From: an uncultured Chlamydiae bacterium
GTDB lineage: Bacteria > Chlamydiota > Chlamydiia > Chlamydiales > SM23-39
Direction: 5' to 3'
Length of the DNA: 64,000 nt
NCBI GenBank assembly: GCA_963730605.1
Contig: CAVSSM010000002.1
Location: 64,001 to 128,000, forward strand
Shown: in pieces, positions 38,150 to 48,007 of the stretch
Position numbering within the stretch: position 1 is the first letter of the stretch
Layout of the letters: each line of letters starts with the position of its first letter
Made by a program: the position numbers and the translations under genes
Notes under the pieces: model-generated
The model's database searches: none
Seen by the model: only the letters and a program-made list of their open reading frames with translations
What the model was told of the DNA's origin: nothing

Positions 38150-38314
38150 TATACCGCGCCCGCTCATCTTGAGTGAATTTTGTTGAGCATCTTTTTTGCT
38201 CCAGCGCATTGCTCGATCTCGTTAACATTGTGCAAGTTGGACTCGATCTCCGCAATGCTACTGGAGCCAAAAATCTGCTGTCAAAATTCACACAACCTAA
38301 GCGGGCGCGGTATA
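38150..38314. mobile_element. MITE family B (TA-TACCG ends), 161 bp plus TA duplication
   Basis: tataccgcgcccgct/agcgggcgcggtata; near-identical inverted copy at 44540-44704. Confidence 0.93.
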
Positions 38315-38968: not shown

Positions 38969-40006
38969 ATGACCCTCTTCCAATCCATCATCCTAGGGAT
39001 CGTTCAAGGGCTCACCGAATTTTTTCCGGTCAGCTCTTCCGCCCATTTGGGGCTGGCCAAATGGCTTTTGGGGCTGCAGGATGGCGGGCATCTCCTCTAC
39101 TTCGATCTTGTTTGCCATAGTGGAACGCTCCTCGCGCTGATCCTCTTTTTGCGCAGAGACATCGCCGCAACGTTTAAGAACCCTAAAGAGCTTTTCCTTA
39201 TGGCTCTTGCCCTATGCCCTCTTGTCCCTGCTTATTTTCTCATGGAGCCTCTTCGGATCGCGGCCTCCGATCCCGCCTATCTGGGGTTTTTCTTGATGTT
39301 CACTGCACTCCTTCTTTTTTTCGCCTCCATAAAAAAAAGCGAAAATCGACACAAAGTTCGCACCAGTTCATTGCCTAAAGTGGCCTCTTTCACAATTTTC
39401 ACACAGGATTCGGGCGAGCGAGGCAAAGCCGGATTGAAGCGCAGCGTTCCACATGACGAAGCCATAGCCGAAGGCGCTATGGCTGAGGAAGAGGATCGAT
39501 CTGGCTGCGGAATCGAGAAAAAGGTTCGAGGAACCTTTTTCTCGCGGAGCAGATTCGCGAAGCGAATCGGCCCGAAGGGAGCCGCAGCCGGCCGAAACCC
39601 TGTGAAAATTGTGAAAGAGGCCACTAAAGTCAAAGATGTGCTATGTATAGGGTTTATGCAAACGCTGGCCCTTCTTCCCGGAATCTCGCGCAGCGGGTCG
39701 ACGATCGCGACGGGGCGCCTTTTAGGCTGGGATTGGATCGCCGCAGCGCGCTTTTCCTTTCTCCTTGCTACGCCTGCGATCCTAGGGGGGCTGGCTCTAG
39801 AGACCCTGAAACTCCTCCGCGAGCCATCTGCTCACGTCACAGAAGTCTCGGCCTCTTGCTATGCAGCCGGCTTCATCGCATCTTTTGCCATGGGGGTGAC
39901 CTGTGTCCGTTTTATGTTCAAAATCTATGAACTTGGGATCGTGCGCCCGTTTGCGTGGTATTGCCTTGCCGCCGGCCTCTTAGCCTTATGGACGTTCCAT
40001 GCTTAA
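38969..40006 (+). CDS. uppP: Undecaprenyl-diphosphatase with an 83-aa in-frame insertion
   Basis: GIVQGLTEFFPVSSSAH, LPGISRSGSTI, ARFSFLL; 262 aa after removing the insert. Confidence 0.95.
   Translation: MTLFQSIILGIVQGLTEFFPVSSSAHLGLAKWLLGLQDGGHLLYFDLVCHSGTLLALILFLRRDIAATFKNPKELFLMALALCPLVPAYFLMEPLRIAASDPAYLGFFLMFTALLLFFASIKKSENRHKVRTSSLPKVASFTIFTQDSGERGKAGLKRSVPHDEAIAEGAMAEEEDRSGCGIEKKVRGTFFSRSRFAKRIGPKGAAAGRNPVKIVKEATKVKDVLCIGFMQTLALLPGISRSGSTIATGRLLGWDWIAAARFSFLLATPAILGGLALETLKLLREPSAHVTEVSASCYAAGFIASFAMGVTCVRFMFKIYELGIVRPFAWYCLAAGLLALWTFHA
39376..39628. mobile_element. MITE family E inside uppP (245 bp plus 4-bp TAAA direct repeat)
   Basis: Perfect 24-bp TIR gtggcctctttcacaattttcaca at 39380-39403 and 39601-39624; TAAA on both sides. 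Confidence 0.95.
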
Positions 40007-44397: not shown

Positions 44398-44959
44398 TTA
44401 GTGTACTGATAGCACCGATGTTATCAGCAAGCGAATCGTTCAAATATGCGGCGCCAAGTGTTGCGATTCCGTAGCTTCGAACTAGAGAGTATTGAGTTGC
44501 CATTGCATGGCTTTTATCCATAGGATGGATCCGTCGAGCTATACTGCGCCTGCTTAGGTTGTGTGAATTTTGACAGCAGATTTTTGGCTCCAGTAGCATT
44601 GCGGAGATCGAGTCCAACTTGCACAATGTTAACGAGATCGAGCAATGCGCTGGAGCAAAAAAGATGCTCAACAAAATTCACTCAAGATGAGCGGGCGCAG
44701 TATAGTTGCCTTGGAGTAAAAGCACGGCCAACTGGCCATGAATACCCCATGGCGTTTAAGGCGCCATCAACAAAACTAACGCAGTTAAAAAAAACCGGAG
44801 AATACTGCATTTTTTCATCCAAACACTGTGACATAATTTTGAAGATATAATTTTTGACAGATTCCATTTGTTGCTTATTCGCCAAGAAATCGACAGTCAA
44901 TTCATTAGTAAATTTCGATTGATGGGCATTTATTGAATCATCGATCACATTGCAGCTAA
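44398..44959 (-). pseudogene. Low-GC gene fragment split by MITE B and bounded by MITEs C and E
   Basis: Removing 163 bp joins ...TPRQL to ARRIHPMDK... in one frame. Confidence 0.75.
44540..44704. mobile_element. MITE family B, second copy
   Basis: TA-TACTG...CAGTA-TA; reverse complement of 38150-38314 with about 3 differences. Confidence 0.93.
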
Positions 44960-45429: not shown

Positions 45430-45792
45430 ATGGCATCCGAAGAAATTTTGATGGAGATCGATGAGACGTTGGATCGTTTGATCCAGAATGCTGAAGCGAT
45501 CGCCGGCGTCGAAATTGCAGAACTCTCCGTCATCGAGCTCGAGGCGTTTCAGAAGACGCAAGAGAGCCTCATCCAGCATTTGCTCTACACAGATGAGCGG
45601 CTGGAATCGCAGAGACAAGGTCTTTCCAAGGTAGACAAACGATCGGCGAGTTATAAACTCATAGAAAAACGGGCCAAGTTTGAAAAACTAAAATCAACCT
45701 ATCATAAAAATATCTCAGATACGATAGAAAAAAAGCTGCCGATCCTGTCAAAACGTCGGCGCAAGCGCTTCTTGGTAAACTTCAGAACTTAG
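45430..45792 (+). CDS. Hypothetical coiled-coil protein
   Basis: RBS aagga; 120-aa ORF. Confidence 0.7.
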   Translation: MASEEILMEIDETLDRLIQNAEAIAGVEIAELSVIELEAFQKTQESLIQHLLYTDERLESQRQGLSKVDKRSASYKLIEKRAKFEKLKSTYHKNISDTIEKKLPILSKRRRKRFLVNFRT

Positions 45793-48007
45793 CAAGCGAC
45801 CGGAGAGCCTCTTCCAAGTCTTTGACTTTCGGCAGGACTTCTTCTTCCAGATCTTTGCAATAGGGAACGGGACAATCTTTTCCGGCGATGCGGCGCACGG
45901 GAGCGTCGAGGAAGAAAAACGCCTCTTCCGCCACGCGGGCGGCAAGCTCAGCGCCGAATCCGCAGTTGCGGGGCGCTTCATGGACAACGAGGAACTTGCC
46001 CGTTTTCTTGATGGAAGTTAAGACGGAACCAAAATCGAGCGGCACGAGGGTGCGAAGGTCGATCACTTCCACCGAGATCCCCTCTTTGGAAAGAGTGTCT
46101 GCCGCCTCGATCGCCATCAGGATCCCCATGCCCCAGGCGGCGACCGTGACATCGGCGCCGCTTTTCAGAATGGCAGCCTGGCCGAAAGGAAGAAGATCAT
46201 CGGGTCCAGGCTCGGGACGCGCGCAAAAGAGGCGCTGGCGGTAAAGGGCCTTATGTTCGAGGAAAATCACCGGATTTGGATCGCGGATCGCCGTCTTCAA
46301 AAGACGCTTCGCATCAGCCGCGTTGCTGGGGATCGCCACTTTCAGTCCCGGACAATGGGAGAGAAACGCTTCGGTGCTCTGGGAATGGTAAGGTCCGCCC
46401 TGGATGTAGCCGCCATAAGGCATCCGGATCACGACCGGGCAATTCCATACCCCATTGGAGCGGTAATACATGCTCGAGAGTTCATTGAAGAGCTGGTTCA
46501 TCCCTGTCCAGGCATAGTCGGCAAATTGGATCTCCGCAACAGGCTTATGAAAGCCGTCGAATGAAAGCCCGGTCGCAAGAGCGACGATCGTCGATTCGGC
46601 AAGCGGAGTGTTGAAACACCTATTTTCAGTAAAACGGTCGGTCAATGTGCGGGTGATGCCGAATACGCCCCCTTTGCCTCTTGCGACATCTTGGCCAAAG
46701 ACAACGACCCCCGGGTCTCGCTCCATTTCTTCGACGAGAGCGTGATTGAGCGCATCCATCAAGACTATGGCTTCCTTATCGGTAGGCTCGGCGGCTCCCT
46801 CGGAAGGTTGTAGAGCCGGCTCGTAAGGCTTGAACACTTTATCCGCAGCTGAGGCGCGGGAGGGAAAGGGAAGCCGATCTGCGGCTTGAGATGCCTCTTC
46901 TACGCGAACGAAATGGCGGCGGCGCAAAGCTTCTAGCTCTTCTTCAGTAAGATAGTTTTGGTCGAGAAGCCACTTTTCGAAACGGGGGATGGGATCGCGA
47001 AGCTTGTCGGAAGAGCGGAACGTTTCACACTGGTATTTTTTCGGGTCGTCGCTGCTGCTGTGAGGGCTGAGGCGGGGCACTTTTGCAATCACAAGACTCG
47101 GTCCCCCGCCTTGGCGGGCCCGAGCTACCGCCTTTTGGAGCGCATCAGCCGTTTCGATATAGTCGCAGCCGTCGATCTCAAAAACAGAGAGCCCATCGTA
47201 TCCGCGGGCCATTTTGGCGATCGTTCCTCCTGCCGTCTGTTCAGCGACCGGCACCGAAATTGCCCAGCCGTTGTCTTGGATCACAATGACAAGCGGCAAC
47301 TTGTGAAGGCAGGCGAAATTGAGCGTCTCGTGAAAATCGCCCTGAGAGGTCGCACCATCCCCTGCTGATACGTAAACCACTTCTATACCGCGTTCCGTCA
47401 GGTTTTGTGAATTTGGACTGGCTGCGCCTTTGCCTAATCGATTCTGTTTTTCGCCCTTCTCTTCTTGAGCATGTTGCTCAAAATGCGAATCGATTATGCT
47501 TTGGCTCGCAGAGTCCAAATTTACAAAACCTTCCTGCTCCCGGTATATTTTTTCACGCAAAACGGCCGATTTGGCAGTGCCCGCAGCTTGGAGGAACTGC
47601 GAACCTACGACGCTCGACTGACAAGGGATTCTCAAATCTGCTTGAGAAAAATGCTCCGGCATCATCCGCCCGCCCGAATGATTCTCGATATCGCGGGCTA
47701 AAAATGCAGCGAGAATATCGACAGGAGAACATCCAAGGCCGATGGCGAAAGCCCTGTCGCGGTAATAGGGAAATCCCCAGTCTACGCCTGGAGTTAAGGA
47801 AAGTGCTGAAACCGCCCCGATCAGCTCATGGCCGGAGACGGAGAGCTGAAAGGTCGCGCCCTTGTTCTGCCGAACAAGCTTTGCCATCTTGTCGTCCATG
47901 AACCGGGTCAAATGGAGAACTTCAAGGACGCGGAGAACCCGCTCCCGCGAGGTTAGGCTCCCTTTAATTAAATCTTCCAGCAATATGTCGTTTCGGTATA
48001 CATTCAT
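45782..48007 (-). CDS. Fused alpha/beta E1 of (branched-chain) 2-oxoacid dehydrogenase with a 54-aa in-frame insertion
   Basis: GHE, PYYRD, GDGATSQG..DNGWAIS (ThDP motif), HSSSDD, NTPLAES, EIQFADY, GPYHSQ. Confidence 0.95.
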   Translation of the reverse strand: MNVYRNDILLEDLIKGSLTSRERVLRVLEVLHLTRFMDDKMAKLVRQNKGATFQLSVSGHELIGAVSALSLTPGVDWGFPYYRDRAFAIGLGCSPVDILAAFLARDIENHSGGRMMPEHFSQADLRIPCQSSVVGSQFLQAAGTAKSAVLREKIYREQEGFVNLDSASQSIIDSHFEQHAQEEKGEKQNRLGKGAASPNSQNLTERGIEVVYVSAGDGATSQGDFHETLNFACLHKLPLVIVIQDNGWAISVPVAEQTAGGTIAKMARGYDGLSVFEIDGCDYIETADALQKAVARARQGGGPSLVIAKVPRLSPHSSSDDPKKYQCETFRSSDKLRDPIPRFEKWLLDQNYLTEEELEALRRRHFVRVEEASQAADRLPFPSRASAADKVFKPYEPALQPSEGAAEPTDKEAIVLMDALNHALVEEMERDPGVVVFGQDVARGKGGVFGITRTLTDRFTENRCFNTPLAESTIVALATGLSFDGFHKPVAEIQFADYAWTGMNQLFNELSSMYYRSNGVWNCPVVIRMPYGGYIQGGPYHSQSTEAFLSHCPGLKVAIPSNAADAKRLLKTAIRDPNPVIFLEHKALYRQRLFCARPEPGPDDLLPFGQAAILKSGADVTVAAWGMGILMAIEAADTLSKEGISVEVIDLRTLVPLDFGSVLTSIKKTGKFLVVHEAPRNCGFGAELAARVAEEAFFFLDAPVRRIAGKDCPVPYCKDLEEEVLPKVKDLEEALRSLAKF
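47384..47547. mobile_element. MITE (TA-TACCG ends) inside the E1 gene, 160 bp plus TA
   Basis: Imperfect TIR tataccg..aggttttgt(g/a)aatttggact; inner arms aatcgattc/gaatcgatt and ttgagca/tgctcaa. Confidence 0.92.

Follow-up and report, generated by a model that had tools for sequence, protein, structure and literature searches.

A TA-flanked palindromic MITE lies in frame within the gene for a fused E1 alpha/beta subunit of a 2-oxoacid dehydrogenase in a chlamydial genome. First treated as a single oddity, it belongs to a subfamily with about 10 in-frame copies in that genome. We judge it likely that the insert is a tolerated in-frame passenger, copied into the gene as a non-autonomous, TA-targeting MITE. 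The window analyzed here is a stretch of 64,000 nucleotides (G000:C2:64001-128000) from the genome carrying the insert (G000; 2.2 Mb, 83% complete). Feature coordinates are collected in Table 1.

Structure of the Insert and Its Host Gene

The first-pass annotation had described a segment TA-TACCG...CGGTA-TA of 162 bp, or 54 codons, kept in frame. Reading the segment within the 741-aa open reading frame bore this out: it consists of TA, 160 nt, and TA (164 nt), which leaves a net 162 bp once one TA is removed. In silico removal of these 162 nt restores a protein of 687 aa with the junction originally quoted. The element is short, has terminal inverted repeats, and lacks a transposase, as bacterial MITEs do. 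Its RNA has a predicted folding energy of -68.5 kcal/mol (z = -10.5), and 0 of 200 shuffled sequences were equally stable. The peptide encoded by the insert is hydrophilic (GRAVY -1.23). Pfam gave no match over the 54-aa frame, and a search of the Atlas with this peptide returned no usable match, a result that says nothing about novelty or absence. Two Rfam matches fell far below the gathering score and were ignored. In the single RNA run, coverage stops short of the insert.

Pfam recognizes E1_dh, Transket_pyr, and Transketolase_C in the 741-aa host protein. The ThDP/Mg-binding motif, G216-D217-G218...N246, is intact, and across 30 homologues G216, G218, and N246 are invariant while D217 is nearly so. 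Together, the E1_dh domain, the transketolase-type beta domains, and the GDG...N motif point to an E1 component of the 2-oxoacid dehydrogenases. Database homologues carry the name 2-oxoisovalerate dehydrogenase E1, with names that suggest environmental chlamydiae, and the host protein scores below the NCBIfam cut-offs for PDH. Judged by homologue names and structural matches, its substrate specificity would be most like that of a branched-chain keto-acid dehydrogenase of the CT340/pdhA_B type. In the available part of the source, CT340 (pdhA_B) of Chlamydia trachomatis is described as the fused E1 of the chlamydial branched-chain keto-acid dehydrogenase (PMC4398506). The fused alpha/beta architecture is common to CT340 and the host gene, whereas the 54-residue insert sets the E1 described here apart. 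The host gene would be the CT340 orthologue, with a likely similar role in making branched-chain fatty-acid primers.

Table 1. Coordinates of the insert, its host gene, and related elements; positions without a contig prefix are those of the window.
Feature	Position	Strand	Remarks
Fused E1 alpha/beta 2-oxoacid dehydrogenase gene	45782..48007	-	741 aa with insert; assigned from Pfam, homologue names, and structure match
ThDP/Mg-binding motif, intact	47270..47362	-	7 residues past the insert
MITE including both TA copies	47384..47547	-	net 162 bp; encodes residues 155-208
TA copy, gene-proximal end	47546..47547		positions 2-3 of codon Ile154
TA copy, gene-distal end	47384..47385		positions 2-3 of codon Ile208
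Inverted-repeat arm	47480..47547		68 nt, 72% complementary to the other arm
Inverted-repeat arm (other)	47384..47451		68 nt, 72% complementary to its partner
T3 MITE, TATAC-ended	38150..38314		intergenic, net 163 bp
Second T3 copy	44540..44704		intergenic, 98% identical to the first
Unrelated palindromic insert in uppP	39371..39633	+	in frame; uppP at 38969-40006
Sister copy of the E1 insert	C2:162361-162524		
IS630-A copy	G000:C1:117042-118162		plus 13 further sites
ybeY insert (L054)	G000:C1:687410-687573		in frame
Same-site insert (L049)	G000:C1:495566-495801		counterpart L167 in G003:C63
E2 linker element (L055)	G000:C2:393482-393687		68 codons, in frame
T10 elements	G000:C7:30663-30979, C11:81443-81663, C9:107226-107491, C4:3246-3562		73-105 codons, in frame
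T9-type insert in a 647-aa ORF	G001:C25 (L029:403-2343)		in frame
Degenerate-ended copy in a cytidylyltransferase ORF	G000:C1:727325-727488		C-terminus and stop
Decayed duplicate of that segment	G000:C1:713608-713771		

Empty Sites and Age of the Insertion

Comparison with homologues, a check of the kind suggested by the first-pass annotation, revealed that the insert is absent from all 114 other scorable homologues as well as from the closest relatives. The spacing between QxLQA and GDG is 20 residues in 114 of 115 scorable database proteins and 74 residues in the insert-bearing E1 only (five of the 120 proteins did not fit the pattern and were left unscored). Among the 30 family loci read, 29 have the 20-residue spacing and one gave no pattern match. 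The site is empty in a cluster member that is 92% identical, as well as in the nearest genomes, G003 and G001, with a gap of 2 nt in G003. These three insert-free relatives have Met or Glu where the insert lineage has Ile. Compared with the empty site, the insert has TA at both ends, as in a target-site duplication; since G003 has TG at this point (a Met codon), the TA arose by one change in the insert lineage.

The site is empty in G003 (dS 0.31), so the insertion came after the split from that species, the nearest one. The newest bursts of the genome, with copies 98-100% identical, are younger than the insertion, which is of middling age. A brand-new insertion fits less well, as about four synonymous changes on 33 synonymous sites have already gathered. 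The age had first been read from eroded terminal repeats. The arms do carry 16 mismatches in their first 61 nt, but 13 of these are common to a sister copy and only three are private to the E1 insert. This sister, 95.7% identical, extends the C-terminus of another gene in the same frame. Since it has 13 of the 16 mismatches and the same frame, imperfect arms and an open frame are inherited family traits, seen also in other copies. Repeat erosion was consequently ruled out as a clock, and the original argument from eroded arms and an open frame to age and selection does not hold. More widely, 69 element sites had orthologous flanks in the G003 sequence examined, and these comprised 58 empty, 5 filled, and 6 other sites; the remaining 175 of 244 sites had no orthologous flanks there.

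A possible shortened allele was found in the read data. A 151-nt contig from run X5 (depth 2.3) carries the element minus 141 nt at the E1 site, leaving 7 codons in frame, with a short side of 20 letters only, which is below the caution limit. The contig has four synonymous changes in E1, a base unique to the E1 copy near one end, and the ancestral base of the family near the other. A sister strain with such an allele would account for these features; a library artefact produced by skipping of the hairpin is the other possibility. A metagenome scan for other junction alleles gave two matches, both unrelated and due to chance, and did not recover the trimmed allele again. In the small-share runs X5, X7, and X20 the gene is covered just in pieces, from relatives.

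The MITE Family in the Genome

A de novo scan of the genome yielded 282 palindrome candidates and about 20 families with at least three members. TATAC-ended elements number 107, of which 79 have TA on both sides. The E1 element is dispersed, with copies in unrelated flanks (the 95.7% sister, 11 full T9/T16 copies, and the 107 TATAC elements). T9/T16 denotes the E1 subfamily and its closest relative, and 10 of its 11 full copies lie in frame in genes. Eight of these ten were identified by a whole-ORF classifier, and the copies in the YbeY and O-antigen-ligase genes were added by hand; a classifier based on 40-codon flanks was dropped, as it missed known cases, E1 included. Five insertions are internal, namely in E1, YbeY, two conserved proteins that have no Pfam match, and a 785-aa frame which is presumably LptD. 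Three are N-terminal, in a Mur-ligase-domain, a SprT-like, and an O-antigen-ligase gene, where a downstream start is possible, and two are C-terminal, in a YbbR-like gene and a cytidylyltransferase. Members of the E1 subfamily occur in 2 of 6 congeners and in 4 of the 18 family genomes sampled.

The T9/T16 element has a length that is a multiple of three and no stop codon if the TA occupies codon positions 2-3. The T3 subfamily has 0 of 20 copies in genes, and none of them combines a 3n length with an open frame. Five genic copies can be read in either orientation, and all five use the one with the more hydrophilic peptide. Since roughly half of the TA sites lie in coding DNA (by a crude mask), 10 genic copies out of 11 are more than expected. 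This excess could be due to intergenic copies decaying faster, and half-elements are seen.

The Putative Mobilizer and the Target Duplication

The genome contains 29 matches to DDE_3 (IS630-type). Among them, the IS630-A group comprises 14 copies of 1121 bp that are 99.9-100% identical, a very recent burst. All 13 copies inspected have TA-TACC ends and are TA-flanked on both sides. IS630-A and the E1 element have only the TA flank and the terminal 8 nt in common, and agree at 10-14 of 30 nt; the left end of IS630-A is a far closer fit to subfamily T10, at 23 of 30 nt. Judging from these ends, IS630 elements terminating in TA-TACCGC are the likely mobilizer class of the E1 element. Two further IS630 groups are present in the genome.

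Among the 216 ends of 108 TATAC elements, 29 deviate in the outer base of the flanking TA, compared with 3-7 for the next four bases. The variable outer base raised the question of blunt insertion instead of TA duplication. CA/CA or TG/TG flanks occur at 0 of the 107 listed TATAC elements. The empty sites of G003 give a mixed picture, the YbeY site favors later mutation, and the 13 young IS630 copies are TA/TA without exception.

Structural Placement

A full-length model of the host protein was of low quality (pLDDT 69; Foldseek rmsd about 15) and was replaced by a monomer model of the alpha domain built from 120 sequences (pLDDT 84). The best match of this model, for which Foldseek was also run, is the E1-alpha of Thermus thermophilus BCKDH (Z 37.3, rmsd 2.8 over 314 residues), and the insertion site corresponds to 1UM9 chain A, residues 162-166. 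In the model, a host helix is extended by about 29 insert residues, of which the first 20 or so have a pLDDT of about 76-78; a loop modeled at low confidence then leads back to the strand with GDG at its end. The surface loop anticipated by the first-pass annotation accordingly takes the form, in the monomer model, of a helix-to-strand turn with the E1-alpha fold kept. With solvent exposure judged from secondary structure and alignment, this turn would lie at the surface, in a position compatible with the fold. The element had been placed just before the ThDP motif. This is true of the sequence, where it ends 7 residues upstream of GDG, but the topology suggests that in the structure the length of a beta-strand separates the two, with the insert on the far edge of the sheet.

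Selection on the Insert and the Host Gene

The E1 gene is under ordinary purifying selection. Compared with G003 it has a dS of 0.31 and a dN of 0.043 (455 codons), which gives a dN/dS of 0.14. Among 431 orthologue pairs drawn from 1.0 Mb of the 1.7 Mb of G003, whose median is 0.155, this value ranks at the 40th percentile. The relaxed selection that would have spoken against a maintained insert is thus not visible. With G001 as outgroup, 26 synonymous and 17 non-synonymous changes fall on the branch of the insert-bearing E1 and 30 and 21 on that of G003, with 39 unpolarized; this branch test is blind to relaxation that began only recently.

Within the insert, polarization with four other copies assigned four synonymous and one non-synonymous change to the E1 copy and one non-synonymous change to the sister, leaving one unpolarized. 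The chance of such a synonymous bias is P 0.007-0.062, rising to 0.06-0.15 with one polarity misassigned. The bias is suggestive of read-through and of mild constraint on the insert. The initial proposal that the insert is kept under selection for translation thereby gains weak support, from four of five to six lineage changes being synonymous, even though the argument first given for it fails.

Origin and Maintenance of the Insert

The following sequence of events would account for a tolerated passenger. A MITE, probably mobilized by an IS630-family transposase acting in trans, would have been copied into a variable turn between helix and strand of the E1-alpha domain, where an Ile codon supplied the TA. 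As the element is 3n long and stop-free in the TA phase, the gene would be read through, with 54 hydrophilic residues added. Since the turn is at the start of the strand bearing GDG at its far end, the insert would project away from the active site. Selection would act to keep the frame open and probably the peptide hydrophilic, without preserving any function of that peptide. In-frame copies would persist, as only precise or in-frame deletions are harmless, while intergenic copies would decay. One pattern counts against this reading: the synonymous bias and, at another locus, an unusually conserved insert shared with G003 (L049 and L167) indicate more constraint than a pure passenger needs.

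Alternatively, the 54 residues may have gained a role, as a helical protrusion for docking or regulation, and may now be selected as a peptide. The modeled extension of the host helix by about 29 residues and the in-frame insert in the E2 subunit gene are compatible with such co-option, as are the synonymous lineage-specific changes. However, the counts are small, the E2 insert differs in subfamily and sequence, every relative examined lacks the E1 insert, a nearly identical peptide forms the C-terminus of an unrelated protein, and an allele trimmed to 7 codons possibly exists; we regard co-option as improbable. It is about as improbable that the insertion crippled E1 and that the gene is in a decay still invisible. 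Here, 54 residues near the cofactor strand, the IS/MITE bursts under way, and the existence of other 2-oxoacid dehydrogenase E1 paralogues would make a loss conceivable, yet the 741 codons contain no stop or frameshift, the conserved residues are intact, dN/dS is ordinary with no excess on the insert-bearing branch, and the gene is present in 90 of 102 family genomes. The roughly four synonymous changes in the insert also imply that there was time enough to decay. A broader version of co-option, to which we give a marginally better but still low chance, treats the subfamily as a coding-adapted parasite (3n long, open on both strands in the TA phase, and encoding a hydrophilic helix and linker) that reuses tolerant codons across species. 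The E1 peptide would then be selected as a helical protrusion, with E2 and its MITE-derived linker extension as the probable partner. If this were true, the birth of a protein domain from a MITE would have been caught within one genus, where empty, full, and trimmed alleles can be compared.

Two other readings are less probable still. The 687-aa enzyme could be made if the hairpin were skipped, by processing of the RNA or by ribosomes that bypass it from one Ile codon to the identical one created by the TA duplication. Bypassing mechanisms are known, the hairpin is very stable, and the codons at its ends are identical. But no stop codon forces a bypass, and read-through is favored by the filtering of subfamilies by frame, by the preferred orientation, and by the excess of synonymous changes, leaving skipping very unlikely. 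A repeat mis-joined into the gene during assembly is barely credible, although the genome is metagenome-assembled and repeat-rich: the TA duplication and the frame are exact, the E1 copy has private substitutions, and two 741-aa records exist. Moreover, one short-read contig spans the junction at 47384 with 0 differences, even if its run (X1) is possibly the source sample and so not independent. Read as observed, the insert is a real, in-frame element, and the tolerated passenger is the reading we retain.

Relation to Known Palindromic Elements

In the available portions of the literature, the RPEs of Rickettsia are described as palindromic elements inserted in frame (Ogata et al., 2000, 2002; Abergel et al., 2006; PMC10969869; PMC2229807; PMC3733652), and a guanylate kinase bearing an RPE is still active with altered affinity (PMC2229807). 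As far as these portions go, both systems consist of open-frame hairpin repeats of about 150 bp that have entered many housekeeping genes in frame, the genes being unrelated and the hosts intracellular bacteria. With 10 of 11 full copies in frame in unrelated genes, the T9/T16 subfamily appears to work like the protein-coding palindromes of the RPE type and like the open-frame Correia and ERIC MITEs. In contrast to the RPEs as described there, the present elements have a chlamydial host, a clear TA duplication, and a similar-ended IS630 in the same genome, and the insertions are mostly species-specific and recent; the comparison is one of description, not of sequence.

Other TA-flanked bacterial MITEs, according to the sections available, are RUP (the partner of IS630-Spn1), ERIC/IRU, and the Correia elements of 107/155 bp (PMC2229807). 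They resemble the present elements in having TA at both ends and a long stem-loop, and mobilization by IS630 has been proposed for RUP. In the Correia elements, as summarized there, an open-frame form is found in genes and a closed-frame form between them, which mirrors T9/T16 versus T3. They differ in sequence and host, and here most subfamily copies are inside genes. A literature search confined largely to papers free of subscription listed none on in-frame MITEs in chlamydiae; such elements may nevertheless have been published.

As a single case, the E1 insert repeats what the RPEs showed in Rickettsia. The added value lies in the natural controls within one genus. Orthologues are empty (dS 0.3), a sister copy is 96% identical, a closed-frame subfamily stays outside genes, a second species has independently acquired an element at the same codon of YbeY, and an allele trimmed in frame possibly exists. 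With such controls an old question becomes testable, namely whether inserts of this kind are neutral or supply the material from which new parts of proteins arise.

Further In-Frame Elements

Several other insertions were observed. The unrelated insert in uppP adds about 88 residues to the undecaprenyl-diphosphatase, whose relatives are shorter and continuous. At a Tyr codon of ybeY, G000 (L054) and G002 (L080) have different TATAC MITEs in frame, with empty sites in G003, G004, and G006; several further sites likewise hold a different element in G003. The inserts L049 and L167 occupy the same site in G000 and G003, with 162 of 164 aligned bases identical and flanks at about 90%, and differ in length by 72 bp, in frame. 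Constraint, gene conversion, and independent insertion are candidate explanations of their likeness.

The E2 element (L055) lies in the linker between the lipoyl and E3-binding domains and is absent in five of five relatives. It is TATAC-ended, of another subfamily and sequence than the E1 insert; by chlamydial gene order, this E2 would be the partner of the E1. The T10 elements lie in RecD2 and other long ORFs and share an internal module with 234-bp T9 copies. In G001, a T9-type insert is located directly before the UDP-sugar pyrophosphorylase domain. Finally, a degenerate-ended copy supplies the stop codon and C-terminal end of a cytidylyltransferase ORF, with a CTP synthase frame starting inside it, and a decayed duplicate of this segment lies on the same contig.
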